NCBI GenBank assembly: GCA_900545815.1 | Contig: URAM01000003.1 | Span: 64,082 to 128,081 of the forward strand | Direction: 5' to 3' | DNA: 64,000 nucleotides | From: an uncultured Eubacteriales bacterium | GTDB lineage: Bacteria; Bacillota; Clostridia; Oscillospirales; Oscillospiraceae | Shown here: piece after piece, positions 11,025 through 35,761 of the stretch | Numbering within the stretch: the first letter of the stretch is position 1 | Layout of the letters: each line of letters opens with the position of its first letter | Translations under genes and position numbers: made by a program | The notes under the pieces: generated by a model | Database searches by the model: none | What the model was told of the DNA's origin: nothing | What the model saw: only the letters and a program-made list of their open reading frames with translations

Positions 11025-11120
11025 TCTCCGCTCCAACGCTCCCATTTTAATCAAGCAAACGTGAAAGAAACAGAATAACCAACATCTAATTTTAGCTATT
11101 TCCCATAGGAGGAACCTATT

Positions 11121-12467: not shown

Positions 12468-12650
12468 GGATAGCGAGCATCCCCTTTTTGCACACAACCA
12501 CTGTCTAATTTGTCCCTTATGAGGCAGTGACATCCGTCCCCGGGTACCACTGGATTACGGGAATCCGCCAAGATCCATGCGTATCCGGGGACAAGCTGTC
12601 AGAGAGAAGGCTCGTTGCTGTCTCTGAAAAGTCAAAAGAGGAGGTTCTTT

Positions 12651-13895: not shown

Positions 13896-14083
13896 GTCTG
13901 CCACACAACGAAACACAACTGAATGGATGTGCCGTACAGAAGTGGGCCACAATGCCTGAAGTGACCTCTGTACGGAAGCGGACAGGATTCCCCCTGTCCC
14001 AAGGGAAAACCGGAGAGGGCAACCTCTCCGGTTTTTCCCCCACCTTATCATCCTCTACTCCGATACGAGAAGGAACAAAACCT

Positions 14084-15382: not shown

Positions 15383-15404
15383 CCACAGGGAAAGGAGAAC
15401 GACC

Positions 15405-17442: not shown

Positions 17443-17445
17443 TGG

Positions 17446-17485
17446 AAACAGGCGTTCGATTGTTTATCGAACGCCTGTTTTGTGT
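17446..17485 (+). terminator. Rho-independent terminator after the VWA gene
   Basis: Stem AAACAGGCGTTCGAT / ATCGAACGCCTGTTT with loop TGTTT, then TTTGTGTATTTT. Confidence 0.8.
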
Positions 17486-17820
17486 ATTTTAGTCATTTTC
17501 TACGATGTCACTGGTGAAAAATGCAGCATTTCACAGGAGCGATGTGGGGGAAGGTTGCCAGATGGAATCGCAAGGAGTGTGAATATTTTTGCGGAAAACT
17601 TGGATGATTTTCAGTTTATTTTCGATATTTAAGTATTTTGTTCCGATGACACTCCCCCCTTCCAATGCTATCATGAAAGCAGATCAAGGCCCGCTCAGGG
17701 GTTACATCCTTCCACCCCATGGTCATTCACTCACTTGTGCCCCCTGGGCGGCCCCTATGTCAAGGAAACTTGTCCCTCTATAAATGAGATAAAATCCAAA
17801 CCAATACAAAGGAGAACAAT

Positions 17821-19035: not shown

Positions 19036-19103
19036 TCGCATCCCTCTCTGGTGAATTGGATTGTTTTATCTTTTCCATTTTCACCCGCCTATCATTCATG
19101 GGG

Positions 19104-20849: not shown

Positions 20850-21731
20850 TCACAGTGTCCCTCCGTTGAGTACAAACTGCCGGAATTTCTGCACCGCCGG
20901 CGGCTGATAGGCTCGGTCATCACTGACCAGGTAGAAGCTGCGCTCCCACAACGGATGGGCGATCTGGATGATCTTCACATCCAACCGCAGCAGCATATCC
21001 ATATAGGGTACCACGGCGATACCAAATCCGGCAGCAACCAAACCGGCCACCACCTGATCTTCCTCCGTCTCGTAGGCGATGACGGGTTTGCCGTCAATTT
21101 TAGAGAACAATTCCTCCACCACGCCCCGCATTCCGGAGCCTTCTGAGAAGTAGACCTGGGGATAAGGCAGGGTTTCCGTCAGATCCACCGAGTGGTTCTT
21201 TGCCAAAGGATGGTTTTTGGGCACGATGAGCACCAGATCCTGCTGCTCTACTGCAATGGCAGTTAAGCCCATTTCCACTGGCGGTTTGGATGAAAAAACC
21301 AAATCAACCTTTTTCTCTGCCAGTTCATCCAAAAGATGGCTGGTCACACCGGTGTGAAAGGCGAATCGAATGTCCTTTCCCGGGTTCTCTGCCAGGAATC
21401 GAGCTGCCAATTTGGGCACATAATCTACCCCCAACGTCCGCAGCAATCCCAGCCGGATCAGCCCCTCCCCACGGCTGACCCGCTGGAGGGATTCCACCCC
21501 CTCATCCAAAATGGACAGGGTTTCCTGGGCACAGGCTAGGAACTGTTCTCCATACTGGGTCAGGGAGATACTCCGCCCGTTCTTCTCAAACAGCGGCACC
21601 CCCAGTTCCCCCTCCAGCTGGGAGATGGCGTGGCTGAGGCTGGGCTGAGTGATGCATAGCCGCTCGGCAGTGCGGGTGTAATGCTGGACGTGAGCCAGCT
21701 CTACGAAGTAACGCAGGTGTGATAAATTCAC
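20850..21731 (-). CDS. LysR-family transcriptional regulator
   Basis: N-terminal HTH MNLSHLRYFVELAHVQHYTRTAERLCITQPSLSHAISQLE. Divergent from the hydroaromatic operon. Confidence 0.85.
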   Translation of the reverse strand: MNLSHLRYFVELAHVQHYTRTAERLCITQPSLSHAISQLEGELGVPLFEKNGRSISLTQYGEQFLACAQETLSILDEGVESLQRVSRGEGLIRLGLLRTLGVDYVPKLAARFLAENPGKDIRFAFHTGVTSHLLDELAEKKVDLVFSSKPPVEMGLTAIAVEQQDLVLIVPKNHPLAKNHSVDLTETLPYPQVYFSEGSGMRGVVEELFSKIDGKPVIAYETEEDQVVAGLVAAGFGIAVVPYMDMLLRLDVKIIQIAHPLWERSFYLVSDDRAYQPPAVQKFRQFVLNGGTL

Positions 21732-21772: not shown

Positions 21773-21791
21773 TGATAGAAAAAAACTATCA
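21773..21791. promoter_or_regulatory. Candidate LysR-type binding site (T-N11-A palindrome)
   Basis: TGATAG-AAAAAAA-CTATCA, a perfect inverted repeat in the divergent intergenic region. Confidence 0.45.
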
Positions 21792-21950: not shown

Positions 21951-22817
21951 ATGCAGCTGTCAGGAACCACCACCCTGCTGGGACTGATTGGATCGCCGGT
22001 CGCACACTCCAAGTCCCCTGCCATGTATAACTACTGTTTTCGGAAGTTCCATATGGACTGCGCCTATCTGGCCTTTGATGTGGCCGCCGATCAGGTGGAG
22101 CAGTCCGTAAAAGCCATCCGCACCCTGCATATGCGGGGCGCCAACGTGACGATGCCCTTTAAGACCACGGTCGTCCCTTACTTAGATCGCCTGACCCCGG
22201 CGGCAGAGACCATTCAGGCCGTGAACACCATCGTCAATGAGGACGGCGTCTTGGTGGGATACAACACCGACGGCTGCGGCTACACCCAGAACCTCCGCCG
22301 GAACGGCATCGAAGTGGCCGGCAAGAAGATCACCTTGATCGGCTGTGGCGGCGTTGGTTCCTCCATCGCCGTACAGGTGGCGCTGGAAGGTGCGGCGGAG
22401 CTGGCCATCTTCAATCGGAAGGATAAGTTCTGGCCCAGCATTGAAGAACGGATGGAGGCCATCCACAAGGTCGCCCCCAACTGTGTCCTCTCCCTCCACG
22501 ACCTGGCCGACCAGGACGCCCTGCATGAGGCAGTGGATCACTGCGACATCCTCTCCAACGCCAACATGGTGGGGATGCCCCCCATGGAGGACATGAGCAA
22601 CATCAAAGACCCCAGCTGGTTCCGGCCTGATCTGATCGTCACCGATGTGGTCTACTCCCCCACCGAAACGAAAATGCTCCGAGAAGCCAAAGCCGCTGGC
22701 TGCAAGACCTGCGGCGGGCTGGGGATGCTGCTGTGCCAGGGTGCGGAAGCGTTCCGGCTGTACAGCAAGGATCTGGAGATGCCCATTGATGAGATTCAAG
22801 CACTGCTTTACGATTAA
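21951..22817 (+). CDS. Shikimate/quinate 5-dehydrogenase family (AroE-like) paralogue 1
   Basis: LIGSPVAHSKSPAMYN...NVTMPFK...NTDG...GCGGVGSSIA motifs. Confidence 0.8.
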   Translation: MQLSGTTTLLGLIGSPVAHSKSPAMYNYCFRKFHMDCAYLAFDVAADQVEQSVKAIRTLHMRGANVTMPFKTTVVPYLDRLTPAAETIQAVNTIVNEDGVLVGYNTDGCGYTQNLRRNGIEVAGKKITLIGCGGVGSSIAVQVALEGAAELAIFNRKDKFWPSIEERMEAIHKVAPNCVLSLHDLADQDALHEAVDHCDILSNANMVGMPPMEDMSNIKDPSWFRPDLIVTDVVYSPTETKMLREAKAAGCKTCGGLGMLLCQGAEAFRLYSKDLEMPIDEIQALLYD

Positions 22818-22850: not shown

Positions 22851-24077
22851 ATGACAAAGACAGATTCCAGAAGATACTATCCCACTGCCTTAGCCCTGTA
22901 CATCACCTACTTTGTCCTGGGCATCGCAGCAACCATCATGGGGCAGTACAAGCAGGACTTCGCCGCCCTGTGGGGCGCCAGCAAGCTGGCAGACGGCAGC
23001 TTTGACGTATCCAGCGTCGTGGCCGTCATCGCCGCCATCGGCCTGGGCCGTCTGGTGGCCTTCCCCATCGCAGGTCCTCTGTCCGACCGTCTCGGCCGCC
23101 GCCTGTCCGCTCTGATCGGCTGCGTCCTCTACGCCATCTTCCTGCTGGCCATCACTTTTGCACCGAATATGTATATCGGTTACGTCCTGGCCGTCATCAG
23201 CGGTATGGCAAACTCCTTCCTGGACACTAGCATCACCCCCTCCTGCATGGAGATCTTCAAGGAAAAGGGCACCATCGCCAACATCTTCACCAAGCTGGCC
23301 ATCTCCATCGCACAGTTCCTGCTCCCCTTTGCCATCGGCTTTGTGGCCGCACGGAACCTGCCCTTCCACACCATCTTCATCGCCACTGCGATCATCATCA
23401 TCGTAGACGGCATCTTCCTCTGCTTCCTGCCCTTCCCGCCTTTTGAACGAGTGGTCAAGAGCGCCGACAAGCCCAAGGAAAAGATGCACTTCACCGCCCC
23501 CGCTATCATCCTGATCTGCCTGGGCTTCACCACCTCCACCACCTTCATGCTGTGGATGAACTGCAACCAGGAGCTGGGCAAGCTGTACGGCTTACAGGAT
23601 CCTGCTATGATTCAGTCCTTCTACTCCGTGGGCATCGTCTGCGCCCTGTTCGTCAGCGCTGCACTGCTCAGCCGCAAGGTAGAACCGGCTAAGATCCTCA
23701 TCGTCTATCCCTGCATCGCCTTTATCACCCTGGGCGTCATCTACTTCGTACAGACCCCGTTCATCTGCCTGGCCGGCGGCTTCCTCCTGGGCTTCTTCGC
23801 AGCAGGCGGCGTGCTCCAGCTGGTCGCCGCAGTCGCCAACGAGATGTTCCCCAAGAACCGCGGCGTCATCACCTCCATCGTCATGATCGCCTCCAGCGTG
23901 GCCAACTACCTGGTCATCAGCGTGGCCGGCGTCCTGACCCGTGTGGGCGGCACCAACGGCCCCCGTCTGGTTCTGCTGTTCAATATGGCAGTCACCCTGG
24001 TGGGCATCCTGCTGGCTCTGTACCTGAACGTCTGCCAGAAGCGGGAGCGGGCAGCTGCTGAAAGAGCGGAGGCATAA
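22851..24077 (+). CDS. MFS transporter
   Basis: 12 TM helices with the MFS loop motif (GPLSDRLGRR). Confidence 0.75.
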   Translation: MTKTDSRRYYPTALALYITYFVLGIAATIMGQYKQDFAALWGASKLADGSFDVSSVVAVIAAIGLGRLVAFPIAGPLSDRLGRRLSALIGCVLYAIFLLAITFAPNMYIGYVLAVISGMANSFLDTSITPSCMEIFKEKGTIANIFTKLAISIAQFLLPFAIGFVAARNLPFHTIFIATAIIIIVDGIFLCFLPFPPFERVVKSADKPKEKMHFTAPAIILICLGFTTSTTFMLWMNCNQELGKLYGLQDPAMIQSFYSVGIVCALFVSAALLSRKVEPAKILIVYPCIAFITLGVIYFVQTPFICLAGGFLLGFFAAGGVLQLVAAVANEMFPKNRGVITSIVMIASSVANYLVISVAGVLTRVGGTNGPRLVLLFNMAVTLVGILLALYLNVCQKRERAAAERAEA

Positions 24078-24080: not shown

Positions 24081-24596
24081 ATGAAAACAACGAACAACCT
24101 CTTTCTCATTGGCTTCATGGGTGCGGGCAAATCCTCTGTCTCCGCCGCCCTGGGACAGAAGCTCGGCCGTGCGGTCGTTGAAATGGATCAGTGCATCTCG
24201 GAAAACGAGGGCATGACCATCCCCGAAATTTTCGCCCAGAAGGGCGAGCCCTACTTCCGTACCTGTGAAACAGCCCTGCTCCAGGGCTGTGCCCAGGGGG
24301 AACCCCGTATCATCTCCTGCGGCGGCGGCGTGCCCATGCGGGAGGAAAACGTAGCGGCTATGAGAGCCTGCGGCACCATCGTCCTGCTCACCGCCCGTCC
24401 CGAAGTCATCCTGGAGCGAGTCAAGGACAGCGATGACCGCCCTCTGCTCCAGAACCGCAAAAGCGTAGAAGGCATCTCCGAACTGATGGAGCAGCGCCGA
24501 CCCAAATACGAGGCTGCGGCCGATGTGACCGTGGACACCTCGGACTTGAACATCGAAGAAGTCTGCGAAGCAGTATTGCAGCAGGTCAACCATTGA
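24081..24596 (+). CDS. aroK: Shikimate kinase-like P-loop kinase
   Basis: LIGFMGAGKSSV Walker A, 171 aa, shikimate-kinase length and motif layout. Confidence 0.75.
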   Translation: MKTTNNLFLIGFMGAGKSSVSAALGQKLGRAVVEMDQCISENEGMTIPEIFAQKGEPYFRTCETALLQGCAQGEPRIISCGGGVPMREENVAAMRACGTIVLLTARPEVILERVKDSDDRPLLQNRKSVEGISELMEQRRPKYEAAADVTVDTSDLNIEEVCEAVLQQVNH

Positions 24597-24620: not shown

Positions 24621-25466
24621 ATGTCTCAGAAATATCCCATCACCGTCAGCTCCTGGACCCTGGGCGATCAGTGCACCTTTGAAGAACGTGTTGCAGCAGC
24701 AAAGGCCGCCGGTTTTGAAGGCATCGGTCTCCGTGCGGAAACCTATGTGGACGCCCTGAACGAAGGTCTGTTCGATGCGGACATCCTGGCCATCCTGGAA
24801 AAGTACGATATGAAGGTCACCGAAGTGGAATACATCGTCCAGTGGGCAGATGACCACCGCTCCTACGAGCAGAAGTACAAGGAACAGATGTGCTTCCATA
24901 TGTGCCATCTGTTCGGCGTCAACCACATCAACTGCGGCCTGATGGAGAACTACTCTGTCGAACACACCGCTCAGAAGCTGCGTGAACTGTGCCACCGTGC
25001 AGGCAAGTACACCATCGGCGTGGAACCCATGCCCTACAGCGGTCTGCCCGATGTGAAGAAGGCTTGGGCTGTGGTCAAGGAATCCGGCTGCGACAACGCA
25101 AAGCTCATCCTGGACTCCTGGCACTGGATCCGTGCCAACCAGAGCTATGACCCCTCCGTTCTGGCTGACGTCCCCGCTGATAAGGTAGTCGCCGTCCAGA
25201 TCAACGATGTTCAGGCACACCCCTATGCCGCTCCCGTCCTCCGGGACGAGTCCATGCATGACCGCATGATGCCCGGCACCGGCCACGGCGACACCGCCGG
25301 CTTTGTGAAGATGATCCGCGAAAAGGGCATCGAACCCGCTGTCATGGGCGTGGAAGTCATCAGCGATGAGATCCTGAGCGCCGGCGTGGCAGAAGCCGCC
25401 AAGGCAAACTTCAACGCAACCCGCGCTGTTCTGGAACAGGCTTGGCCTGAAGTAGTGGAACAGTAA
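24621..25466 (+). CDS. Xylose-isomerase-like TIM-barrel (sugar-phosphate isomerase/epimerase) protein; 3-dehydroshikimate-dehydratase-like in this context
   Basis: ~280 aa with (beta/alpha)8 pattern and conserved His/Glu/Asp positions (HLFGVNHINCG...GVEPMP...DSWHW). AGGAGG SD. Confidence 0.55.
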   Translation: MSQKYPITVSSWTLGDQCTFEERVAAAKAAGFEGIGLRAETYVDALNEGLFDADILAILEKYDMKVTEVEYIVQWADDHRSYEQKYKEQMCFHMCHLFGVNHINCGLMENYSVEHTAQKLRELCHRAGKYTIGVEPMPYSGLPDVKKAWAVVKESGCDNAKLILDSWHWIRANQSYDPSVLADVPADKVVAVQINDVQAHPYAAPVLRDESMHDRMMPGTGHGDTAGFVKMIREKGIEPAVMGVEVISDEILSAGVAEAAKANFNATRAVLEQAWPEVVEQ

Positions 25467-25522: not shown

Positions 25523-26398
25523 ATGGAAAGCAGAATCTCTGGACACACGAAGCTCTTTTGCCTGATCGGCTCCCCCGTTGGCCACTCCGGCTCCCCCGCT
25601 ATGTACAACTACACCTTCGAACGCCTGGGCATTGACGCCGCTTACCTGGCCTTTGACATTCCCCTGGAGCAGGTGGAAGCAGGCGTAGAAGCCCTCAAGA
25701 CCCTGGGCGTAGGCGGCTTCAACGTGACCATGCCGGACAAGACCGCTGTCTCCCACCTGGTGGACGAGCTGTCCCCCGCAGCCAAACTCATCGGCGCCTG
25801 CAACACCGTCACCGTGGACGAGAACGGCAAGCTGACCGGCCACAACACCGATGGTATGGGCTTCGTCCGCAACCTGCATGAGCATGGCGTGGAAGTCAAG
25901 GGCAAGAAACTGGTGGTCATGGGCGCAGGCGGCGCAGCAACCGCCATCTGTATGCAGACCGCTCTGGACGGCGCCGCTGAGATCGCCATCTTCAACCGTA
26001 CCGGCTATGACTTCTACTCCAACGGCGAACTGACCGTCCAGAAGCTGGCAGAAGCGGTGCCCAACTGCAAAGTCACCATCCAGCCCCTCCAGGACAAGGA
26101 AGCCCTGGCAGAAGCGGTCAACCATTGTGACATCCTGGTCAACGCCACCAAGGTGGGCATGAAGCCCCTGGAAGACCAGAGCCTCATCGACCCCTCCCTG
26201 TTCCGTCCTGACCTGGTGGTTGCCGACACCGTCTACAACCCCAGAGAGACCCGCATGATCCAGGAAGCCAAGGCAGCCGGCTGCAAGATCGCCGTAGGCG
26301 GCATCGGTATGCTGCTGTGGCAGGGTGTGGCAGCGTTCAAGCTGTACACCGGCAAGGATATGCCTGCGCAGGAAGTCCTGGAGAAGTTCTTCTCCTGA
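25523..26398 (+). CDS. Shikimate/quinate 5-dehydrogenase family (AroE-like) paralogue 2
   Basis: LIGSPVGHSGSPAMYN...NVTMPDK...NTDGMG...GAGGAATAI motifs. Confidence 0.8.
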   Translation: MESRISGHTKLFCLIGSPVGHSGSPAMYNYTFERLGIDAAYLAFDIPLEQVEAGVEALKTLGVGGFNVTMPDKTAVSHLVDELSPAAKLIGACNTVTVDENGKLTGHNTDGMGFVRNLHEHGVEVKGKKLVVMGAGGAATAICMQTALDGAAEIAIFNRTGYDFYSNGELTVQKLAEAVPNCKVTIQPLQDKEALAEAVNHCDILVNATKVGMKPLEDQSLIDPSLFRPDLVVADTVYNPRETRMIQEAKAAGCKIAVGGIGMLLWQGVAAFKLYTGKDMPAQEVLEKFFS

Positions 26399-26454
26399 GT
26401 TCCCGCCTGTAACGTCTGAAATTACCGAAGATACCAAAGAGGAGGAGTTAAGAT

Positions 26455-28383
26455 ATGAAGTTTCCGACTATGTTTTCCCCGGTGCAGATCGGCACTGTGA
26501 CCGTCCCCAACCGTTTCGTCGTGCCTCCCATGGGCAACAACTTCGCCAACACCGATGGCACCCTCAGCGACCGTTCTCTGTCCTACTACCAGGCACGTGC
26601 CAAGGGCGGTTTCGGCCTGATCACCATCGAATCCACCGTCGTCTACAAGGAAGCCAAGGGCGGCCCCCGCAAGCCCTGCCTGTTCTCTGACGACACCGTT
26701 GACAGCTTCCGCCGAGTGGCAGACGCATGTCACGCCTACGGCGCCAAGGTCTCCATCCAGCTCCAGCACGCTGGCCCCGAGGGCAACTCCGCCCTCACCG
26801 GCTACCCCCTGAAGGCAGCCAGCGCCATGCCCGCTGCGGTCGGTCGTGAGATCCCCGTGGCCATGCCTACCGAGGAAGTGTACCGCCTGATCGAGTGCTA
26901 CGGCGACGCCGCTCGCCGTGCCCAGCAGGCTGGCATCGACATGGTTGAAGTCCACTGCGCCCACGGTTACCTGGTGAGCACCTTCATCTCCCAGCGTACC
27001 AACAACCGCACCGATGAGTTCGGCGGCTGCTTTGAAAACCGGATGCGTCTGCCCCGCCTCATCATCGAAAACATCCGTCGGAAGACTGGCGGCAACCTGC
27101 CCATCCTCTGTCGTATCAACGCCAGCGATGAAGTGGAAGGCGGCCAGACCGTTCAGGACGCAGCTGCTGTGGCCGCTTACCTGGAACAGGAATGCGGCGT
27201 AGACGCCCTCCATGTGACCCGTGCTGTCCACCTCCATGACGAGTTTATGTGGGCGCCTGGCATCACCCACGGCGGCTTCAACGCCAACCTGGTCACTGAG
27301 ATCAAGCAGGCTGTCTCCGTCCCCGTCATTGCTGTGGGTCGTTTTACCGAACCTCAGTACGCAGAACTGCTGGTCAAGCAGGGTCGTGCCGACCTGATCG
27401 CCTTCGGCCGTCAGAGCATCGCTGACCCCGAACTGCCCGCCAAGGCAAGAACCGGCAACCTGGAGACTCTGGCTCCCTGCATCGGCTGCCTGCTGGGCTG
27501 CGTGCCTAATATGTTCGCCGGCCGTCCCATCTCCTGCGCCGTAAACCCCTGCGTTGGCCGTGAATCTGACCTGACGCCCGCCGAAGTGTCCAAGAATGTG
27601 GTCGTGGTCGGCGGTGGCCCCGGCGGTCTGTACGCCGCTTGGATCTGCGCCCTGCGTGGGCACCAGGTCACCCTGCTGGAGAAGCACCCGGAACTGGGCG
27701 GCAACTTCCGCATCGCCGCTTACCCCACCGGCAAGGGTCAGATCACCGAAGTCATCCGCTCCTTCATCGTCAAATGCGAGAAGGCCGGCGTGGATCTGCG
27801 CTGCAACGTGGAAGCAGATGAAGCCCTCCTCACTTCCCTGCATCCCGATGCCATCATCCTGGCCACCGGCTCCACCCCCCTCATCCTGCCCATCCCCGGC
27901 CTGGATACCTGCGGCTACATCACCGCTCAGGATATGCTGGAAGGCAAGGCGCCCATGGGACAGAAGGTTCTGGTGGTCGGCGGCGGCATGGTGGGCTGCG
28001 AAGCTGCCGAATACCTGGCAGAACGGGGCCACGAGGCTGCTGTGATTGAGATGAAGGACGTTATCGCCGCTGACGTCACCCCTGAAAACCGTCGTTATAT
28101 GTTCGCGAACTTTGAAGAACACCATGTCCTCCTGCGGCCCAGCGCCAAGGTCAGCCAGTTCTATCCCGATGGCGTGGACTACACCCTGGCTGATGGCACT
28201 GCCGGTTCCCTCCGTGGGTATGACAATGTGGTTCTGGCCATGGGTTCCCGTTCCAACGCCGTGCTGAAGGAAACCGCCGAGAAGGTCGCTCCCCAGGTCT
28301 TTGTCATTGGCGAAGCTGCCAAGGCGCCCGGCAACGCCGTCCTGGCCACCCATGACGCCCTGGAAGCTGCCCTTCAGATCTGA
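26455..28383 (+). CDS. Second OYE TIM-barrel + FAD/NAD(P)-binding two-domain reductase (enoate-reductase architecture)
   Basis: GAGGAGG SD. OYE motifs (HCAHGYLVSTFISQRTNNRTDE). C-terminal VVVVGGGPGGLYAA and VLVVGGGMVGCEAAEYL Rossmann motifs. Paralogue of 4500-6443. Confidence 0.85.
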   Translation: MKFPTMFSPVQIGTVTVPNRFVVPPMGNNFANTDGTLSDRSLSYYQARAKGGFGLITIESTVVYKEAKGGPRKPCLFSDDTVDSFRRVADACHAYGAKVSIQLQHAGPEGNSALTGYPLKAASAMPAAVGREIPVAMPTEEVYRLIECYGDAARRAQQAGIDMVEVHCAHGYLVSTFISQRTNNRTDEFGGCFENRMRLPRLIIENIRRKTGGNLPILCRINASDEVEGGQTVQDAAAVAAYLEQECGVDALHVTRAVHLHDEFMWAPGITHGGFNANLVTEIKQAVSVPVIAVGRFTEPQYAELLVKQGRADLIAFGRQSIADPELPAKARTGNLETLAPCIGCLLGCVPNMFAGRPISCAVNPCVGRESDLTPAEVSKNVVVVGGGPGGLYAAWICALRGHQVTLLEKHPELGGNFRIAAYPTGKGQITEVIRSFIVKCEKAGVDLRCNVEADEALLTSLHPDAIILATGSTPLILPIPGLDTCGYITAQDMLEGKAPMGQKVLVVGGGMVGCEAAEYLAERGHEAAVIEMKDVIAADVTPENRRYMFANFEEHHVLLRPSAKVSQFYPDGVDYTLADGTAGSLRGYDNVVLAMGSRSNAVLKETAEKVAPQVFVIGEAAKAPGNAVLATHDALEAALQI

Positions 28384-28507
28384 TCCAAGCCTCACACAAA
28401 CCATTGCCAACCCATTTTGATTCTCCTCATAAAAACAACTCCTACTTTTTCAAACATCTCTCCTAGATAGATCGAACAAACTCCTTAACACGTTGACAAG
28501 CAAAAGG

Positions 28508-28545
28508 CAAGCGGACATTTCTTTCGAAATGTCCGCTTGTCTTTG
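28508..28545 (+). terminator. Rho-independent terminator of the hydroaromatic operon
   Basis: Stem CAAGCGGACATTTC / GAAATGTCCGCTTG, then TCTTT. Confidence 0.7.
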
Positions 28546-28559
28546 CATGAAAATACAGA

Positions 28560-28776
28560 TCAGCGCTGTTGTTTCTCTTGATACAGGGCAATGGCCTTCA
28601 AAAACGCTTCCCCATATTTCTCCGCTTTTACCTCACCCACGCCGGACACGCCCAAAAACTCCGGCATGGTGCAGGGCACTTTGACCGCCATATCAGTAAT
28701 GATACACGGAAGTGGTAAAAAACGCAAGTATCCCCTTCCAAACGGCGAAAAACGGGTCAGAATCCTAAGATTCTGA
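28560..28776 (-). pseudogene. Remnant of a RecQ-family helicase C-terminus (HRDC domain only; upstream frame closed by an in-frame stop)
   Basis: Minus-strand frame encodes ...LRFLPLPCIITDMAVKVPCTMPEFLGVSGVGEVKAEKYGEAFLKAIALYQEKQQR*. This matches the HRDC consensus (pPyxIf.D.tL.emA...P.t..eL..i.GvG..K..kyG..fl..I). No SD before the internal ATG. The rest of a helicase gene is absent, and ftsZ starts 38 nt upstream. Confidence 0.4.
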
Positions 28777-28790
28777 CCCGTTGCTTTTCA
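28744..28790 (-). terminator. Rho-independent terminator of ftsZ
   Basis: Stem AACGGGTCAGAATC / GATTCTGACCCGTT, then TTTTTCG on the minus strand. Confidence 0.75.
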
Positions 28791-28813
28791 TAGGCTATGT
28801 AGCTTGAACAACC

Positions 28814-30034
28814 TTACTTTCTGCGGTTGAACATTTCCATCAGATCGTCAAAGGGATCCTTTTTGGCCGGTGCTGCCTTGGGCTGCTCAGGCGCAGGAGC
28901 AGCCTTCTGCTGGGTGGCAGTGCTGAACGGATCAAACTCTACCGCCTGAAAGAAGCTCTCCTGGGGCGTCTGAGGGGCAGGTGCAGGGGTGGGTTCGGGC
29001 ACAGGTGCGGGAGCCGGTTCCTGCTGAGTGACCTGGCTGCTGATCTGGGAGAAGGAGGGCACTTCCGGTTCCTCGTCCGCATCGTCAAAGCCGGTGGCAA
29101 TGACGGTGACCCGCATCTCGTCCTCCATGTTCTCATCGAAGATGCTGCCGAAGATGATGTTGGCTTCGGGATGAGCAGCCTGCTGCACCAGGGTGACAGC
29201 GGTATCCACCTCGTCCAGGCCGATGTCCTTGCCGCTGGTGATGTTGATGAGCACGCCCTTGGCGCCATTGATGGAAGTCTCCAGCAACGGGGAGGAGACG
29301 GCCAGCTTGGCCGCTTCCTTGGCCTTGTTCTCGCCTGCGGCACGGCCTACGCCCATGTGGGCAAGACCGGCATCCTTCATGACGGAGGTCACATCAGCGA
29401 AGTCCAGGTTGATGACGCCCACCTTTTGAATCAGGTCGGAGATAGACTCCACCGCCTGACGGAGCACGTCATCTGCGATCTCGAAGGCGTTGGCCAGGGT
29501 GATCTTCTGGTCGGTGGCCATCTTTAACCGTTCGTTGGGGATGATGACCAGGGCATCCACCTTGTTCTTCAGCTCCGTGATGCCTTCCTCGGCCTGGCGC
29601 ATACGCACCTTGCCTTCAAAGGCGAAGGGCTTGGTAACCACGCCCACGGTGAGGATGCCCAGCTCCCGAGCCACGTCTGCCACGATGGGGCTGCCGCCGG
29701 TACCGGTGCCGCCGCCCATACCACAGGTGACAAAGACCATATCGGTGTTTTCCAGCGCCTTAGACAGCTGACTGCGGTTTTCCTCGGCTGCCTTCCGGCC
29801 TACATCGGGCTTTGCGCCTGCGCCCTTGCCGTGGGTCAGCTTCTCGCCGATCTGGAGCTTAAAGGTGGCGTTGGAGGCATCCAGTGCCTGCTTGTCCGTG
29901 TTGACCGCCACAAAATCCACACCCTTGGTGCCGGAGAGCACCATGCGGTTGACTACGTTGTTGCCGCCGCCGCCGACGCCGACGACTTTGATGTTTACTG
30001 CGCTGTTGGGCTCAGTTTCGAATCCAAAGGACAT
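28814..30034 (-). CDS. ftsZ: Cell division GTPase FtsZ
   Basis: GGGGNN tubulin signature (VGVGGGGNNVVNRM), T7 loop, Pro/Ala-rich C-terminal linker and conserved C-terminal peptide. GGGGGAA SD. Confidence 0.95.
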   Translation of the reverse strand: MSFGFETEPNSAVNIKVVGVGGGGNNVVNRMVLSGTKGVDFVAVNTDKQALDASNATFKLQIGEKLTHGKGAGAKPDVGRKAAEENRSQLSKALENTDMVFVTCGMGGGTGTGGSPIVADVARELGILTVGVVTKPFAFEGKVRMRQAEEGITELKNKVDALVIIPNERLKMATDQKITLANAFEIADDVLRQAVESISDLIQKVGVINLDFADVTSVMKDAGLAHMGVGRAAGENKAKEAAKLAVSSPLLETSINGAKGVLINITSGKDIGLDEVDTAVTLVQQAAHPEANIIFGSIFDENMEDEMRVTVIATGFDDADEEPEVPSFSQISSQVTQQEPAPAPVPEPTPAPAPQTPQESFFQAVEFDPFSTATQQKAAPAPEQPKAAPAKKDPFDDLMEMFNRRK

Positions 30035-30177
30035 ATTTGTTTCCCCCTATATTTTCTTCGCATACGAAGTAATCACGCAAAATGAATGTACCTTATTATT
30101 GTAAACTGAAACAGGGAACAGGTCAATAGGTTCCGGAGTATTTCCTGTTCAATTTTTCCCACATTTCCTTCCTGTTG

Positions 30178-30963
30178 TCAGGATTTTTTATTTTTCGTCA
30201 GATGCGGGTGTCCGTCAGCGTAGGTCATATCCAACGTCCCCTTGTCGTCCTTGCTCCAGTTGACATCTACATACTTTTCCAGCACGGCTTCCAGCATCTT
30301 CACCTGGTAGTCAAAGTCGGCATCTGCCAGTATTTTCACCGTCAGCTGTCCCCGATAATCCATCACCAGCAGCTTGCTGTCTGTGCAGTCCACACTACGC
30401 ACATCCTCCAGCAATTCCCGCCCCTTCATGGCCTTGAGCAGCCGGAGCAAGCTGTCCCGCATGGGTTTATCCTCGCTCTTGACCTTCATGCTCTGTCCCG
30501 CCTCTGGGGACACCAGCTCCAGGCCGGTGATTTGGATAAATTCCTTTGGTTTTTTGGTGGTGTCCAGCACCTTGCCCTCCTCGTTGACCAGCCACCACTC
30601 CTTTCCGGATTGGATGGCGGCGGCGGCGTTCGTCTCGGCCACAGTGATCACCAGGGTGTCCGGCAGCTTGCGCTTGATGTTCACCGAGCGCACATAGGCC
30701 AGCTCATCCAGCAGCTTCCGAGCCGTCTCGGTCTTGTTCACTAAAAACAGGTTATCTCCCTTGCTCACTCCAGAGGCTTTGGCGATCTCCTCGGTGGAGT
30801 ACCGTTGGTTGCCCTCCACCTCAAACTGGTTCACCTTGAAAAAGACAATGCAGCCAGCACCGATTACCACGGCGGTCACCACCACTGCCAGCACCAAATA
30901 CAGGCTCAGAAAGCGTCCGCCGCCTCGACTGCGGCGCCTTCTGCGCTTGCGTGGTCTTGCCAT
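30178..30963 (-). CDS. ftsQ: Cell division protein FtsQ/DivIB (POTRA domain)
   Basis: Arg-rich N-terminus, single TM helix, POTRA-like region (FEVEGNQRYSTEEI...LFLVN). Position in dcw cluster. Confidence 0.75.
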   Translation of the reverse strand: MARPRKRRRRRSRGGGRFLSLYLVLAVVVTAVVIGAGCIVFFKVNQFEVEGNQRYSTEEIAKASGVSKGDNLFLVNKTETARKLLDELAYVRSVNIKRKLPDTLVITVAETNAAAAIQSGKEWWLVNEEGKVLDTTKKPKEFIQITGLELVSPEAGQSMKVKSEDKPMRDSLLRLLKAMKGRELLEDVRSVDCTDSKLLVMDYRGQLTVKILADADFDYQVKMLEAVLEKYVDVNWSKDDKGTLDMTYADGHPHLTKNKKS

Positions 30964-30983
30964 CCTATCCCTCCTATCTGTTT

Positions 30984-32246
30984 CTATGGTTGTTGCGGGA
31001 TTCGCTGCAAATGAGCCCCCAAACAGGTCAGATCTCCGGCCAGATCGGCATAACCCCGATCGATATGACGCAGACCGGTGATCACGCTCTCCCCTTCCGC
31101 TCCCAGGGCGGCCACCACCAAAGCGGCGCCTCCCCGCAGGTCAGGGGCATGGACGGGCGCTCCTTTCAGCTGGGAGACTCCGGTGACCACCGCCACTCGG
31201 CCTTCCACCCGCACATCCGCTCCCATCCGCAGCAGCTCGCCGCAGTGCCGGAAGCGATTTTCAAAAATAGTCTCTACAAACACGCTGGTTCCCTGGGCAC
31301 GGCACAAGGCTGCCAGTACCGGCGGTTGGGCATCGGTGGGAAACCCCGGATAGGGCGCCGTGCGCACGGGGCGGACGGCTTTCAGCCGTTGGGGACAGGT
31401 CATGGTGATGCTGTCCGGCCGAGTATGCACCTCGCATCCCGCCATCCGGTACACTTCCAGCACCGGCAGCAGCGCCCGCCGGTCTACCCCAGTCAGGGTT
31501 GCTTCTCCCCCAGCCGCCGCCACGGCAGACAGGTAGGTAGCTGCCACGATGCGGTCTGCGATGATGGTGTGTTCGGTATCGTGCAGGGAACGTTTTCCTT
31601 GGACGATCACAGTGGAGCTGCCCGCTCCAGAGACGTCCGCTCCGGCGCTGCACAGGAACGCTTCCAAGTCCACAATCTCCGGCTCCCGGGCGGCGTTGGA
31701 GATCACCGTCACGCCATCGGCGCAGCAGGCCGCCAGCATGGCATTCTCGGTGGCTCCTACGCTGGGGATAGACAGGACGATCTCCCGTCCTCGAAGGTGG
31801 TGTCCACGGCAGTGGAGACTGCCGCCCTGACATTTTACCTGTCCGCCCATGGCGGTCAATGCCGCCAGGTGCAGATCGATGGGTCTGGGGCCTAGCTCAC
31901 AGCCCCCAGGCATGGATAGCTCCGCCTGCCCCATGCGTCCCAGAATGGCCCCCAGGAACACCACGGAAGACCGCATCTCCCGCATGAGCTGATCGGGCAC
32001 ATCCCAGCGGTGCATGGTGCTGGAATCCACCGTGATGGTTTCCCCGTCCTGCACGACCACGCAGCCCAGGTGGCGCAGAATGGCCACGGAAGCGTCTACA
32101 TCGGTTAGTTGGGGGCAGTTATGTAGGACACTGACGGCGCCGGTCAGGATGGTGGCCGCCAGAATGGGGAGGACGCTGTTTTTTGCGCCCTGGACGGTCA
32201 CTTCCCCGAACAGGGGGCTGCCGCCTTGAATGAGATAAGCACTCAC
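30984..32246 (-). CDS. murA: UDP-N-acetylglucosamine 1-carboxyvinyltransferase MurA
   Basis: GTG start after GGAGGAA. MSAYLIQGGSPLFGEVTVQGAKNSVLPILAA N-terminus is typical of MurA. 420 aa. Confidence 0.9.
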   Translation of the reverse strand: MSAYLIQGGSPLFGEVTVQGAKNSVLPILAATILTGAVSVLHNCPQLTDVDASVAILRHLGCVVVQDGETITVDSSTMHRWDVPDQLMREMRSSVVFLGAILGRMGQAELSMPGGCELGPRPIDLHLAALTAMGGQVKCQGGSLHCRGHHLRGREIVLSIPSVGATENAMLAACCADGVTVISNAAREPEIVDLEAFLCSAGADVSGAGSSTVIVQGKRSLHDTEHTIIADRIVAATYLSAVAAAGGEATLTGVDRRALLPVLEVYRMAGCEVHTRPDSITMTCPQRLKAVRPVRTAPYPGFPTDAQPPVLAALCRAQGTSVFVETIFENRFRHCGELLRMGADVRVEGRVAVVTGVSQLKGAPVHAPDLRGGAALVVAALGAEGESVITGLRHIDRGYADLAGDLTCLGAHLQRIPQQP

Positions 32247-32315
32247 GTTCCATTCCTCCGCTTCGTCTGGATTCTCAGGCCATCCTATGCGAAGGAAGGG
32301 GACGTTGTGTGAAAG

Positions 32316-33443
32316 TTACGCTTTTTTCATCAGACCACAGAGGGTCTCATAGATGCGCTCGTTGGCATCCACATGAGCCATGGCTTTCAGCTCCTGGCTC
32401 ATCTTGGCCCTGCCTGCCTGATCGGCCAACATTGCCTGAACCTGCTCATAGAGCTTATCTCCGGTGCAGTCCGGCTCCAGCATGAGCACTGCCGCCCCTC
32501 GGTCAGAGAGGACACGGGCGTTCTTCTCCTGATGGTTGGCGGTCACGTTGGGAGAGGGCACCAGGATGCTGGGGCAGGCGATGGCGGTGATTTCGGAGAT
32601 GGTGGAAGCGCCCGCTCGGCTGAGCATCACGTCCGCCCCGTCCATGACCACGGGCATATCATAGATATACTCCCGCACATCCACATCGGGATAGTCCGCC
32701 AGGTCAATGCCCCGCTCCTTCAGTGCTTCCAGCACCCGACTGTAATAGCGCTGTCCCACGCCGTAGATGTGGTGGAAGGGTTGTCCCTCCCGACACTCCC
32801 GTGCCACGAAGTCCACCATGTGCTGGTTCATCACCAAGGCGCCCAAGGAGCCCCAGCTGGTGACCACCACCGGCTTGTCATCGGTGAATCCCAGTTTTTG
32901 GCGTGCTTCCACCTTGGTCTGGAGGAAGAAATCTCCTCGAACAGGGGTGCCGGTGACCACCACCCGTTCTGGGTGGGGATAGTGCTTCCGGCTCTCCTCA
33001 AAGCCCACCATGACAATATCCACATACTTGGACAGCATCTTGGTGGTCAGACCAGGCTCGGCGTTGGACTCGTGGACGGCGGTGGGAATGCCCCGCCGTG
33101 CCGCCTCCCGCACCACAGGGAAGGAGGCGTAGCCGCCGGTACCCACCACCAGGTCGGGCTGGAACTGATCCAGAATGTCCTTGGCCTGGCGCTTGGAGCG
33201 GCTCAGGTTGCGCAAAGTCTTGAGGTTATGCTTAATGCCCGCCCCGTTGAGCTTCCGCAGGAAGCTGGTGATGGTGACGGTGCGGATGGGGTAGCCCTCT
33301 CTGGGCACCAGCTGCCGTTCCATGCCGCCATCTGCCCCTACAAAGAGGATGTCTGCCCGGTTCCGTTCCCGAAACATACCGGCCAGCGCCACGGCTGGGT
33401 TGATGTGTCCGGCGGTGCCGCCGCAGGTAAACAGGATTTTCAT
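32316..33443 (-). CDS. murG: Lipid II synthase MurG (UDP-GlcNAc:undecaprenyl-PP-MurNAc-pentapeptide GlcNAc transferase)
   Basis: MKILFTCGGTAGHINPAVALA N-terminal motif. 375 aa. Confidence 0.9.
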   Translation of the reverse strand: MKILFTCGGTAGHINPAVALAGMFRERNRADILFVGADGGMERQLVPREGYPIRTVTITSFLRKLNGAGIKHNLKTLRNLSRSKRQAKDILDQFQPDLVVGTGGYASFPVVREAARRGIPTAVHESNAEPGLTTKMLSKYVDIVMVGFEESRKHYPHPERVVVTGTPVRGDFFLQTKVEARQKLGFTDDKPVVVTSWGSLGALVMNQHMVDFVARECREGQPFHHIYGVGQRYYSRVLEALKERGIDLADYPDVDVREYIYDMPVVMDGADVMLSRAGASTISEITAIACPSILVPSPNVTANHQEKNARVLSDRGAAVLMLEPDCTGDKLYEQVQAMLADQAGRAKMSQELKAMAHVDANERIYETLCGLMKKA

Positions 33444-33485
33444 AGGAAAACACCTCGTTCTGATTTGTCTCTTTTTCTCCCCCGC

Positions 33486-34736
33486 TCACCCTTTTTTCGG
33501 TGCGGGGATCTGTCGGGATACTGATAATATGATCCCGATCTCTGCCAGCTGGATGAGCAAGGCAGTGCCGCCGTAGCTGAAGAAGGGCAGTGCAATCCCC
33601 GTAGCCGGAATGACATTGAGCACCACAGCCATATTCAGAAAGACCTGGACGGCCAGCAGGGTGGTGATCCCCACGATGAGCAGGGAGCCGAACCGATCTC
33701 TGGCGTGGAGCGCCAGCCAATAGCCCCGAATGATGAGCAGGGCAAAGAGGATGATGATGAGCGCTGCGCCGATGAACCCCAGCTCCTCACAGATGATGGC
33801 GAAGATGAAGTCGTTCTGTTCTTCCGGTAAGTACAGATATTTCTGCCGGCTCTGGCCAAAGCCCAGGCCGGTGAGGCCACCGGAGGCCACAGCATAGAGG
33901 GACTGGACGATCTGATAGCCCTTATCACCAGGATCCCACCATGGGTTCAGCCAGGTCTTGATGCGGTCGCTGTTGTAGCCGCCCACAAAGACGATGAGCG
34001 CCATAACGACCCCCATCAGCCCGCCGCCCAAAGCGAACCAGCCCCACCGGATACCGGCGGTGAACAGGATGGCAGCGGCAGCAGCCAGCACCAGGATGGT
34101 GCCGGACATATGCGGCTCCTTCAGCATGAGCAGGGCAATGACGATCAGGATGCCCACATAGGGGAGCAATTCTCCCAGGTCGCTCCAATAGAGGAAGCTG
34201 CGCAGCTGATTCTTCCAGATCGGATCCTTCCGACGGAGCCGCGGAGGCTGGTTTTTCCGCTTAGACATACCGGCGGCAAAGACCAGCACGATCCCCAGCT
34301 TGGCGATCTCAGAGGGCTGATAGGTGGGTCCCACCACCAGCAGCAGCTTGAGCCAGCGGGTGGCGCCGTTGACGTTGACGCCAAAGGGAGTGAGCACCAA
34401 GATTAGGAACACCACTGCCGCACACAGGATGGGCACCGCCCAGGCACGCCAGCGCTGGTAGTCCAATCGCGACACCAGCCAGAGAACGAGCACACCCAGG
34501 ACGGCGTAAATGAGCTGGTGCTTGAAATAGTACAGGGCATCCCCCATCTGCACCACGCCATCCTCCACCTGATATCCGGCGGCTGGGTCGTACAGAGCCG
34601 CATAGGAGGAGGCGGAGAGGAGCATGAGCAGGCCAATGGCCAGCAGCAGCAGGGTGAGCATCAAAAAGGGCAAGTCGATAGGACCCCGTGCCAGCTGCTG
34701 TGCCCGGGTCAAGTCTCGGAAGGATTTTCTTGCCAT
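33486..34736 (-). CDS. ftsW: SEDS-family peptidoglycan polymerase FtsW/RodA/SpoVE
   Basis: 10-TM SEDS topology, conserved GGYNSDRIKTWLNPW and C-terminal motif. dcw position. Confidence 0.85.
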   Translation of the reverse strand: MARKSFRDLTRAQQLARGPIDLPFLMLTLLLLAIGLLMLLSASSYAALYDPAAGYQVEDGVVQMGDALYYFKHQLIYAVLGVLVLWLVSRLDYQRWRAWAVPILCAAVVFLILVLTPFGVNVNGATRWLKLLLVVGPTYQPSEIAKLGIVLVFAAGMSKRKNQPPRLRRKDPIWKNQLRSFLYWSDLGELLPYVGILIVIALLMLKEPHMSGTILVLAAAAAILFTAGIRWGWFALGGGLMGVVMALIVFVGGYNSDRIKTWLNPWWDPGDKGYQIVQSLYAVASGGLTGLGFGQSRQKYLYLPEEQNDFIFAIICEELGFIGAALIIILFALLIIRGYWLALHARDRFGSLLIVGITTLLAVQVFLNMAVVLNVIPATGIALPFFSYGGTALLIQLAEIGIILSVSRQIPAPKKG

Positions 34737-34783
34737 TTGGATGCGCCTTCTTTCCTAGTCAGGATGGGTAACGCAGGTTCCGC

Positions 34784-35761
34784 TCACTTGCCCATAACGC
34801 CAAAGTAGGCCAGGACACAGCAGACCAAGGTCACCAAGGTGAACACGGTAAAGAGCTTCTCCTCGCTCCAGCCCCCCATCTCAAAATGGTGATGGAGGGG
34901 CGCCATGCGGAAGATGCGCTTGCCGTGGGTCAGTTTGAAATAAGTCACTTGGATGATGTCGGACAGAGTCTCCAGCAGGTAGATGATCCCCACCAGGACG
35001 ATGATAAGGGGGATATCCAAGGCAAAGGCCAAGCCGCACACGGTACCTCCCAGAAAGAGGGAGCCGGTATCGCCCATAAAGACCTTGGCTGGGTGGAAGT
35101 TGTAGATCAAAAAGGCGCACAGGCCGCCCACCAGGGCGGCGGCGAAAATGCTCAGGTCGGTGATCTTCCACATGAGAGAGACCGCCAAGAAAAACAGTGC
35201 CACAGGCAGGGTCACGCCAGTAGCCAGGCCATCCACACCATCGGTCAGGTTCACCGCATTGACGGTGGCCACGATGACAAAGGCCGCAAAAACCATGTAT
35301 ACCGCCCAAGGCAGCTGGAAGCTGACGTTGAAGAAGGGGATATACAGGTCGGGGGTCAGGTAGCCGGTGTAGCGCAGGAGGACGGTGAACACGATAGCTG
35401 CCGCCAGCTGGAGGAGGAACTTCTGGGGCGCAGTAAGACCCTCATTCTTGTGGTACTTGACCTTCATAAAGTCGTCCAAAAAACCGATGACGCCAAAGAC
35501 CAGGGCAAACAGGAACACAAACAGGGCGCCGAACCGTCCCTGGGAAAAGTCCTGCCAGCCGGTGACCAGGATGGCGATAAAAATACCGGCGATGAACATG
35601 ATGCCCCCCATGGTGGGCGTCCCCTGCTTGGCCATGTGCCAGACTGGGCCGATCTCTTTGATGGACTGCCCCGCCTTCAGGGCGTGCAGCCAGGGGATCA
35701 GGAATCTCCCGATCAGGGCGGAGGCGGCAAAAGCCACCAGGAAACTAATCAAATACCTCAT
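34784..35761 (-). CDS. mraY: Phospho-N-acetylmuramoyl-pentapeptide transferase MraY
   Basis: MraY motifs (KQGTPTMGG, DDFMKV, NAVNLTDGVDGLA, HHHFE). Confidence 0.9.
   Translation of the reverse strand: MRYLISFLVAFAASALIGRFLIPWLHALKAGQSIKEIGPVWHMAKQGTPTMGGIMFIAGIFIAILVTGWQDFSQGRFGALFVFLFALVFGVIGFLDDFMKVKYHKNEGLTAPQKFLLQLAAAIVFTVLLRYTGYLTPDLYIPFFNVSFQLPWAVYMVFAAFVIVATVNAVNLTDGVDGLATGVTLPVALFFLAVSLMWKITDLSIFAAALVGGLCAFLIYNFHPAKVFMGDTGSLFLGGTVCGLAFALDIPLIIVLVGIIYLLETLSDIIQVTYFKLTHGKRIFRMAPLHHHFEMGGWSEEKLFTVFTLVTLVCCVLAYFGVMGK

Follow-up and report, generated by a model that had tools for sequence, protein, structure and literature searches.

What do two related flavin-dependent reductases, encoded close together in the genome of an uncultured gut member of the Oscillospiraceae, reduce, and do they share a substrate? 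The genes, here called p1 and p2, lie in a 64,000-nucleotide (nt) stretch of contig URAM01000003.1 (the window), and each encodes an old yellow enzyme (OYE) barrel joined to an iron-sulfur cluster and an FAD/NAD(P)H module. The original prediction had considered them as a pair of paralogues and missed that p1 is the last gene of an operon; this operon context says much more about the substrate than paralogy does. It makes p1 moderately likely to be a hydroaromatic-acid (quinate and/or shikimate) ene-reductase of a LysR-controlled operon. The second copy, p2, is best described from its sequence as an enoate-reductase-like enzyme that is associated with a PucR-family regulator and would act on a substrate different from that of p1.

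Both open reading frames are located where they had been predicted, p1 at 26455-28383 on the plus strand (642 aa) and p2 at 4500-6443 on the minus strand (647 aa), and a tblastn search of the window finds only these two copies and no third. The p1 gene starts with an ATG preceded by AGAGGAGG at 26438-26445, and p2 with an ATG at 6443 that has AAAGGAG 9 nt on its 5' side. The short p2 start, already preferred in the original prediction over a longer frame (TTG start at 6719), is correct, because the longer frame would run about 255 nt into the upstream leucine-rich repeat (LRR) gene (6464-7390), the nearest homologues of p2 are 646 to 650 aa long, and the alignment of p1 with p2 begins at residue 3. 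The three-part architecture of 2,4-dienoyl-CoA reductases and enoate reductases is borne out in both proteins by Pfam domains and cysteines. Oxidored_FMN (PF00724) matches the N-terminal part with nearly full coverage of the profile (8e-74 for p1 and 4e-65 for p2), and Pyr_redox_2 matches the C-terminal FAD/NAD(P)H module (1e-29 and 4e-26, respectively). Both p1 (386 and 509) and p2 (394 and 519) have a pair of GxGxxG Rossmann motifs, and FAD_binding_2 gives only a short, Rossmann-level match in p1 (residues 382-421). The iron-sulfur cysteine motif that had been proposed as a check lies between the barrel and the FAD domain in both copies: C342, C345, C349, and C361 in p1 (CIGCLLGC-x11-C), and, in p2, C349, C352, and C355, with C366, which aligns with p1 C361, as the most probable fourth and C361 as an additional cysteine. 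These residues match the cluster cysteines of Escherichia coli FadH and of 2-naphthoyl-CoA reductase (NCR) in the alignment, and the four columns are cysteine in 165 of 166 sampled family members. The OYE motif H-x-x-H-G-Y reads HCAHGY at 167 in p1 (H167, H170, and Y172) and HAAHGY at 168 in p2. With a full-length identity of 36%, well above what chance would give, the two are genuine genes and genuine, old paralogues. No signal peptide or membrane anchor is present in p1 or p2, and a presumed importer serves p1, so that respiration in the strict sense, which had been suggested as a role for the pair, is unlikely.

The p1 gene closes a tight six-gene operon on the plus strand, in the order SDH-A, MFS, shikimate kinase, TIM, SDH-B, and p1, with gaps of 33, 3, 24, 56, and 56 nt; a LysR-type regulator gene (20850-21731, minus strand; Pfam HTH_1 and LysR_substrate) is divergent from it. 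SDH-A (21951-22817; Pfam Shikimate_dh_N and SDH_C) and the core gene SDH-B (25523-26398) encode paralogues of shikimate/quinate dehydrogenase that are approximately 54% identical to each other. SDH-B scores above the cut-off of NCBIfam PRK12548 (441 vs. 432) and SDH-A below it (402 vs. 432). In the PDB, SDH-B has its best matches in a Listeria shikimate dehydrogenase (3tnl, 4e-82) and the quinate/shikimate dehydrogenase YdiB (1npd/1vi2, 1e-74), and its alignment keeps the S-x-S motif and the catalytic K, D, and Q, that is, the Lys/Asp pair and the Ser and Gln residues of substrate binding. The second gene (22851-24077) encodes a transporter of the major facilitator superfamily (MFS; Pfam MFS_1, 7.5e-31), the presumed substrate importer. 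The third (24081-24596) encodes a shikimate kinase paralogue (Pfam SKI, 1.9e-45) with the Walker A, D36, R60, and GGG motifs and an RRPKY stretch, which falls under every NCBIfam shikimate kinase equivalog cut-off (149 vs. 204).

The other core gene, TIM (24621-25466), encodes a xylose-isomerase-like TIM-barrel enzyme of the Lmo2234 type (Pfam AP_endonuc_2), with 54% identity to PDB 2g0w (Lmo2234, 3e-94). Lmo2234 is a structural-genomics protein of unknown function that is mentioned in the literature as a PCR marker or listed as unknown; the Listeria gene presumably neighbors genes for an OYE and a shikimate dehydrogenase. The TIM family profile reaches only two characterized enzymes, Bacillus subtilis IolI (1i60, 2e-9) and QuiC1 (5hmq, 4e-8; E-values for the QuiC1 match range from 1e-9 to 4e-8). 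The metal-ligand and base positions of TIM (E, D-x-x-H, Q, and E) align with those of QuiC1. The IolI inosose isomerase and the QuiC1 3-dehydroshikimate dehydratase both carry out enolate chemistry beside the ring ketone of a cyclitol, and TIM is a putative keto-cyclitol-carboxylate dehydratase or isomerase.

This gene arrangement is widely conserved. A genome scan with p1 listed 80 loci with orthologues 72% to 99% identical, and a metagenome scan was anchored on TIM; in both scans the listed matches are filled by close relatives. The genome loci belong mostly to metagenome-assembled genomes (MAGs) of Oscillospiraceae, three of them 98% to 99% identical, and other carriers are Agathobaculum sp. 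Marseille-P7918, Enterocloster alcoholdehydrogenati C5-48, a Blautia MAG, and Megasphaera massiliensis NP3. Of the genome loci, 69 extend 2 kb or more upstream of p1, and directly 5' of the gene 65 of these have TIM and 66 have SDH-B. Among the 48 with an upstream flank of at least 6.5 kb, the LysR gene is found in 47, MFS in 43, and the shikimate kinase in 26, and roughly a third of the related clusters are without SDH-A. The TIM-anchored scan gave more than 537 related stretches among the matches listed, mostly from the human gut, including one contig, also among the matches listed, that is 100% identical to p1. An orthologue of p1 lies no more than 1.5 kb downstream of TIM in 44 of the 54 metagenome loci with enough downstream sequence, and in four further loci it is either farther downstream or 58% identical. 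A sequence identical to SDH-B is found on 705 contigs. The p1 operon is thus abundant in human gut metagenomes and present in cultured strains. Its proteins carry generic names only ('sugar phosphate isomerase/epimerase', 'shikimate dehydrogenase'), beyond which the operon lacks functional annotation; no gene-level account of a reductive quinate/shikimate pathway or of a p1-type operon was found in the literature searched, and the operon appears to be undescribed.

Among more distant relatives, an SDH-like dehydrogenase with an OYE iron-sulfur reductase and, usually, TIM is a recurring theme in which the order is shuffled and paralogues are swapped. Since the automated count of SDH genes beside distant OYE paralogues is noisy (SDH-A and SDH-B cross-match), only inspected loci were used here (L079, L152/L153, and L139/L143). 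In L152 and L153, as well as in L157, the order is TIM, p1 (58% identical), SDH, and MFS. In L139 and L143 the position of p1 is empty, and the far side of the LysR gene holds an OYE/FAD paralogue with 34% identity, accompanied by an SDH-like gene and an MFS gene of its own; the shikimate kinase of this variant (L139, and also L138, L141, L143, and L148) carries a fused type II chorismate mutase. In the cultured M. massiliensis NP3 (L079), the operon directly follows a complete aroB-aroA-aroC-pheA-aroE-aroK set (330-5963). Given this complete set in Megasphaera and the kinase fusion in L139, the dehydrogenases and the kinase of the cluster are extra, non-biosynthetic copies.

Some of these loci contain further genes. 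In L139 (7133-7960 and 11187-14060), and also in L138, L141, L143, and L148, a tripartite ATP-independent periplasmic (TRAP) carboxylate transporter (DctPQM) follows TIM and SDH, and beyond the LysR gene of the same variant lies a gene for a 478-aa protein without a Pfam match. In L079, the operon is followed by a second, convergent pair (15644-19012), consisting of an SDH-like gene and a gene for a 783-aa OYE/FAD protein, with its own LysR gene; the Pfam matches of the 783-aa protein are split, suggesting an insertion.

The association of the operon with LysR extends to the intergenic region between them. A LysR-type transcriptional regulator (LTTR) box, TGATAGAAAAAAACTATCA (21773-21791), with an ATAG-N7-CTAT dyad of the T-N11-A type, is located approximately 43 nt 5' of the LysR start. 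Of 109 related loci, in which LysR is 58% to 99% identical, 106 have this box when a single mismatch is allowed. By a rough estimate, an eight-base motif would occur by chance at 0.1 to 0.2 per 260-nt region, and the observed frequency is far above this. The candidate LysR operator is conserved.

A transporter, one or two ring-alcohol dehydrogenases, a dehydratase or isomerase, and an ene-reductase match a scheme in which a ring is oxidized, dehydrated, and reduced twice, and from this context we infer a substrate, an order of steps, a reaction direction, and a physiological role. A plant- or microbe-derived acid would be imported by MFS, after which an SDH paralogue would oxidize its 3-hydroxyl to a ketone (quinate to 3-dehydroquinate, or shikimate to 3-dehydroshikimate). 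TIM would then perform enolate chemistry beside the ketone, which could be the conversion of 3-dehydroquinate to 3-dehydroshikimate, the removal of another hydroxyl, or a keto shift. The C=C bond of the resulting ring enone or enoate would be reduced by p1, acting on 3-dehydroshikimate or directly on shikimate, as enoate reductases do with free acids. By analogy with FadH, p1 would be a cytoplasmic, NAD(P)H-dependent enzyme that passes electrons from NAD(P)H through FAD, [4Fe-4S], and FMN to the substrate. A dehydrogenase would finally re-reduce the ketone, and further rounds could strip more hydroxyls. The expected products are dihydroshikimate-type hydroxycyclohexane-carboxylates, which would be excreted, making the pathway a net sink for NADH, and the accessory shikimate kinase may divert part of the shikimate to aromatic amino-acid synthesis.

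Several points weigh against this assignment. The substrate is read from the neighbor genes only. The MFS protein has no specific NCBIfam assignment and is not a recognized shikimate/quinate transporter type, and there is no aroD/aroQ-type dehydroquinase among the six operon genes, although TIM might stand in for this missing 3-dehydroquinate dehydratase. TIM matches the NCBIfam QuiC model at 4e-13, yet with 49 bits against a cut-off of 1200, and it could be a dehydratase, an isomerase, or an epimerase. The kinase and SDH-A are accessory, and in three loci (L035, L055, and L068) p1 orthologues occur without TIM and SDH. The record titles of many MAGs are taxonomically unreliable ('cleanbin' titles are implausible) and were not relied on. 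OYE iron-sulfur enzymes can run oxidatively, as in the case of BaiCD. Lastly, the SDH family includes a 5-ketofructose reductase (7cok), so that non-hydroaromatic ketones are possible substrates.

The last of these points, along with the generic MFS and with IolI as the best characterized profile match of TIM (2e-9), would fit an operon that acts on a keto-sugar or cyclitol (inositol-derived or ketofructose-like), in which the SDH-like proteins are ketoreductases, TIM is an IolI/IolE-like isomerase or dehydratase, and p1 reduces the enone that results. We consider this unlikely, as no iol genes are nearby, about half of the clusters include a kinase with shikimate-kinase-type motifs, which in one variant is joined to chorismate mutase, the cluster adjoins an aro operon in Megasphaera, and SDH-B exceeds the cut-off of the NCBIfam shikimate dehydrogenase subfamily and keeps the carboxylate-binding S-x-S.

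The kinase, its fusion to chorismate mutase in L139, and the position of the operon beside aroB-aroA-aroC-pheA-aroE-aroK in L079 are also what would be seen if imported quinate or shikimate were salvaged into aromatic amino acids, with p1 as an accessory or general redox enzyme and not a pathway step. However, the constant enzymes are p1, TIM, and SDH-B, the kinase is dispensable (26 of 48 loci), and the route from quinate to shikimate-3-phosphate requires no C=C reduction, which makes salvage decidedly unlikely as the function of the operon.

The direction of the p1 reaction can be questioned as well. The family has oxidative members in the bai pathway, the nearest solved structure is that of the dearomatizing NCR, and gut microbiota are generally known to turn quinate into hippurate precursors (routes are listed in PMC9960799). 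In principle, p1 could be a desaturase or aromatizing enzyme, similar to BaiCD or a dienoyl-CoA oxidase, that converts hydroxycyclohexane- or cyclohexene-carboxylates toward aromatic acids, for example benzoate or protocatechuate. This is very unlikely in a strict anaerobe with no evident high-potential acceptor; the C-terminal domain is of the NAD(P)H type, and the sole reported gut reaction on shikimate is reductive. The reductive hydroaromatic-acid pathway is the one that we compare with known systems below, after considering how p1 and p2 relate to each other and to their family.

The two reductases are 36% identical over their full length, and each is 33% identical to E. coli FadH in a trimmed alignment, which is about equal to their identity with each other. 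In a neighbor-joining (NJ) tree of 166 family members, they fall into separate clades whose common ancestor covers 71 of the 166. A recent duplication within one orthologous group is ruled out by this identity, by the separate NJ clades, and by the different synteny of the two genes. The H-x-x-H-G-Y motif and the four cysteines are identical between the copies, and are uninformative on specificity because they are nearly family-wide in the 166 sampled sequences. Given 36% identity and separate clades, different substrate specificities, as had been proposed from the different regulators, are plausible from the sequences.

In a library of 50%-cluster representatives of 1.84 billion proteins, the p1 clade stands apart: identity drops from 56% (784 bits) in the best full-length representative to 44% (560 bits) in the next one, beneath which the members of a very large family (5583 representatives at E <= 1e-30) form a continuum. 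Between residues 100 and 108, the p1 clade has QLQ(H/N)AGP where p2, FadH, and most relatives have H-x-G-R, and a conserved arginine near the flavin site is replaced by proline specifically in the p1 clade. A Clostridium kluyveri 'predicted enoate reductase' (P0284), itself a predicted enzyme, is 48% identical to p2 and 32% to p1. A further paralogue occurs within 10 kb in six of the 80 genome loci, and two such paralogues within 24 kb are ordinary for gut Clostridia.

Both enzymes belong to a well-known family, and the membership of this family as listed in the original prediction holds only in part: urocanate reductase is a fumarate-reductase-type flavoprotein and not an OYE, and the caffeate reductase of acetogens is of the acyl-CoA-dehydrogenase type. 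The best relatives of known structure are NCR (1e-90) and FadH (1e-83), which would be in keeping with p1 and p2 being CoA-thioester reductases of the FadH/NCR type that act on dienoyl-CoA or aryl-CoA. We regard this as highly improbable. At the positions of the OYE His pair, the CoA-ester enzymes have other residues (CAIVGY in NCR and MGSEGY in FadH), and both p1 (HCAHGY) and p2 (HAAHGY) differ from them in keeping His-x-x-His. The His pair of OYEs binds the carbonyl or carboxylate of free substrates, and its retention points to a free carbonyl or carboxylate substrate and not a thioester. Further, neither neighborhood in the window contains a CoA ligase or CoA transferase, and the identity to FadH is only 33%.

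The suggestion that the family includes a bilirubin reductase (BilR) subclade raised the possibility that one of the copies is BilR, or a related enzyme of bile-acid or steroid metabolism (BaiCD/BaiH or a steroid 5-beta-reductase). At the level of E-values, the NCBIfam similarity is indeed high, and the models that match both proteins best are mycofactocin OYE-2, BaiCD, and the long form of BilR. However, the scores are far under the cut-offs, with 468 bits (p1) and 421 bits (p2) against 750 for the long form of BilR (NF045599), and 475 and 425 bits against 825 for BaiCD (NF041087). The defining feature of BilR is an HGDR motif that aligns with FadH Y166 (PMC10769871). This position reads HGYL in p1 (170-173) and likewise in p2, and HGDR is found in none of the 166 sampled relatives; neither copy belongs to the BilR subclade. 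No bai genes, bai operon, or hydroxysteroid dehydrogenase (HSDH) gene are among the neighbors in the window, and the probability that either reductase is one of these enzymes is close to negligible. The mycofactocin-associated OYE-2 family (TIGR03997) was rejected as well (483 and 427 bits vs. a cut-off of 793), and no mycofactocin genes were seen in the annotated neighborhoods of the window.

Among characterized enzymes, p1 resembles the clostridial 2-enoate reductases (EC 1.3.1.31; those of C. tyrobutyricum, C. kluyveri, and Moorella, and FldZ-like proteins) in its three-part architecture and its H-x-x-H-G-Y motif. In anaerobic Firmicutes, these cytoplasmic enzymes reduce free alpha,beta-unsaturated carboxylates. 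Unlike them, p1 forms a discrete clade of its own and is encoded inside a putative hydroaromatic-acid operon and not by a stand-alone gene. With FadH and NCR, it shares the domain order, the iron-sulfur cysteines, and the presumed electron path, whereas those enzymes bind CoA thioesters, are without the His pair, and are approximately 33% identical.

The operon as a whole is reminiscent of the aerobic qui/qsu/qut clusters, which likewise combine a YdiB-like dehydrogenase, a TIM-barrel enzyme (the one of the p1 operon being distantly related to the QuiC dehydratase domain), an MFS transporter, and a LysR-type regulator. In contrast to these clusters, it has no aroD/aroQ dehydroquinase and no genes for protocatechuate ring cleavage, it includes an iron-sulfur flavin ene-reductase and often a shikimate kinase, its hosts are strict anaerobes, and its outcome would be reductive, not aromatizing. 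Heterofermentative lactobacilli, as reportedly described by Whiting and Coggins in the 1970s, use dehydrogenases, dehydration, and C=C reduction to form dihydroshikimate and 3,4-dihydroxycyclohexane-carboxylate. We know of no gene assignments for this lactobacillar route; the enzyme types are the same as those encoded by the p1 operon, and the organisms differ.

Reduction of the shikimate ring has also been described in the gut. In Eggerthella lenta and Sutterella wadsworthensis, shikimate serves as an electron acceptor, its enoate being reduced to hydroshikimate, and faeces contain detectable shikimate (Little et al., bioRxiv 10.1101/2022.12.26.521950). The proposed role of p1 is similar in that reduction of a ring C=C bond would serve as a gut electron sink. 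The Eggerthella and Sutterella enzymes are respiratory-like flavin reductases that are induced singly, and which we take not to be OYE/Fe-S proteins, whereas p1 would be a cytoplasmic, NAD(P)H-linked OYE/Fe-S enzyme with dehydrogenase and TIM partners. In bile-acid and steroid pathways of the gut, a dehydrogenase is likewise paired with an OYE iron-sulfur reductase that acts on 3-oxo-enones (PMC12238238). The bai pathway and the steroid pathway (5-beta-reductase plus HSDH) use reductases of the same family and follow the same logic, in which a ring hydroxyl is oxidized to a ketone, water is removed, the C=C bond is reduced, and the ketone is re-reduced. The p1 operon differs from them in substrate class, in having an SDH-family partner in place of a short-chain dehydrogenase/reductase (SDR)-type HSDH, in having no BaiE-type dehydratase, and in that p1 is far under the BaiCD cut-off.

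Quinate and shikimate are major dietary plant acids (coffee, fruit, and vegetables) that reach the colon, and hippurate is in wide use as an indicator of gut microbiome diversity. Both acids have been documented as diet-derived gut metabolites (PMC12529788), and PMC9960799 names them as precursors of urinary hippurate. The enzymology of polyphenols in the gut was reviewed in 2024 with no mention of what becomes of quinic acid, and the only gut enzymes linked so far to the reduction of shikimate are of a different family and from different phyla. The p1 operon therefore offers a gene candidate, testable in cultured strains, for a long-known microbial conversion of quinate and shikimate. If the assignment is true, it would add a new substrate class to the OYE iron-sulfur reductases of gut Clostridia, so far associated with bile acids, steroids, bilirubin, and cinnamates. 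If the substrate is wrong, only an ordinary pair of divergent enoate-reductase paralogues is left.

The surroundings of p2 are of a different kind. Its relatives are rarer, with identities of 96%, 86%, 77%, and 73%, followed by a broad group near 48%. The gene 20 nt 5' of p2 (6464-7390, minus strand) encodes a BspA-type LRR protein (Pfam LRR_5, 2.8e-55) with an N-terminal, zinc-ribbon-like CxxC...CxxC motif, and is probably co-transcribed with p2. Homologues of this LRR gene are also found directly 5' of p2 relatives in L081 (5114-6001, 70%) and L083 (5201-5944; Christensenellaceae, 41%). The pairing of a cytoplasmic-looking LRR protein with an enoate-reductase-like enzyme has no obvious explanation. 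Upstream of the LRR gene and p2 is a gene for a PucR-family regulator (7849-9525, minus strand; Pfam HTH_30), and in L081 and L082 the p2 relatives likewise have a PucR-family (HTH_30) gene upstream. The original prediction was thus right in assigning different regulators to the two copies, with LysR divergent from the p1 operon and PucR upstream of p2. The PucR gene is probably a separate transcript, because two hairpin-plus-T-run structures follow it. In L082 (1-625 and 6001-7950), p1 is 97.6% identical to p1 of the window, and a PucR-linked, p2-like gene approximately 5 kb from it shares just 69% identity with p2, so that among close relatives the p2-type locus is variable and p1 stable.

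Convergent with p2 is a gene (3334-4443, plus strand; Pfam Esterase) for a secreted or anchored protein that resembles ferulic acid esterases (FAEs) of family CE1, with its best PDB matches to a ferulic acid esterase (5cxu, 3e-31) and to the FAE domain of XynZ (1jjf, 2e-30). The protein has an N-terminal hydrophobic segment and a Ser/Pro-rich linker, and its gene is divergent from that of a second PucR regulator (1390-2946). The esterase invites the idea that p2 reduces hydroxycinnamates released by it, although the adjacency is not conserved: the esterase is absent beside the p2 relatives in L081 to L083, the recurrent neighbors are PucR and the LRR gene, and a conserved esterase-p2 pairing finds no support. 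Taken further, the window may hold most of a system for chlorogenic acids (caffeoyl- or feruloyl-quinate) in abundant uncultured gut Oscillospiraceae. The CE1 esterase would free the hydroxycinnamate and quinate, p2 would reduce the side chain of the former, and the p1 operon would reductively dehydroxylate quinate or shikimate to hydroxycyclohexane-carboxylates. We consider this combined system doubtful. If true, it would supply long-sought microbial genes for the route from quinate and shikimate through cyclohexane-carboxylate and, in the host, benzoate to hippurate. It would also represent a third route, with enzymes unlike the respiratory flavin reductases found in Eggerthella and Sutterella.

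The spacer between p1 and ftsZ (28384-28813, 430 nt) contains two hairpins, both with perfect 14-bp stems and detected by consensus scan only: a palindromic one at 28508-28539 and a terminator-like one with a T-rich tail at 28751-28782 on the plus strand, 3' of p1. They have no Rfam match and may be crossed terminators for the convergent genes. Since no Rfam families or tRNAs are present in the window, a riboswitch or leader explanation does not apply and was ruled out. Between the p2 and p1 loci, large open reading frames without a Pfam match (924, 498, 184, and 428 aa; 9759-14602 and 17755-19041, minus strand) adjoin genes for a MoxR-type AAA ATPase (15360-16244) and a VWA/CoxE-like protein (16234-17442). 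Immediately 3' of p1 lies a division and cell wall (dcw) cluster (28814-39315, minus strand), encoding FtsZ, FtsQ, a MurA-like protein of the EPSP-synthase fold, MurG, FtsW, MraY, a Mur ligase, and a penicillin-binding protein with PASTA domains. The p1 operon is therefore situated in a neighborhood of the chromosomal core and not in an obvious mobile island.

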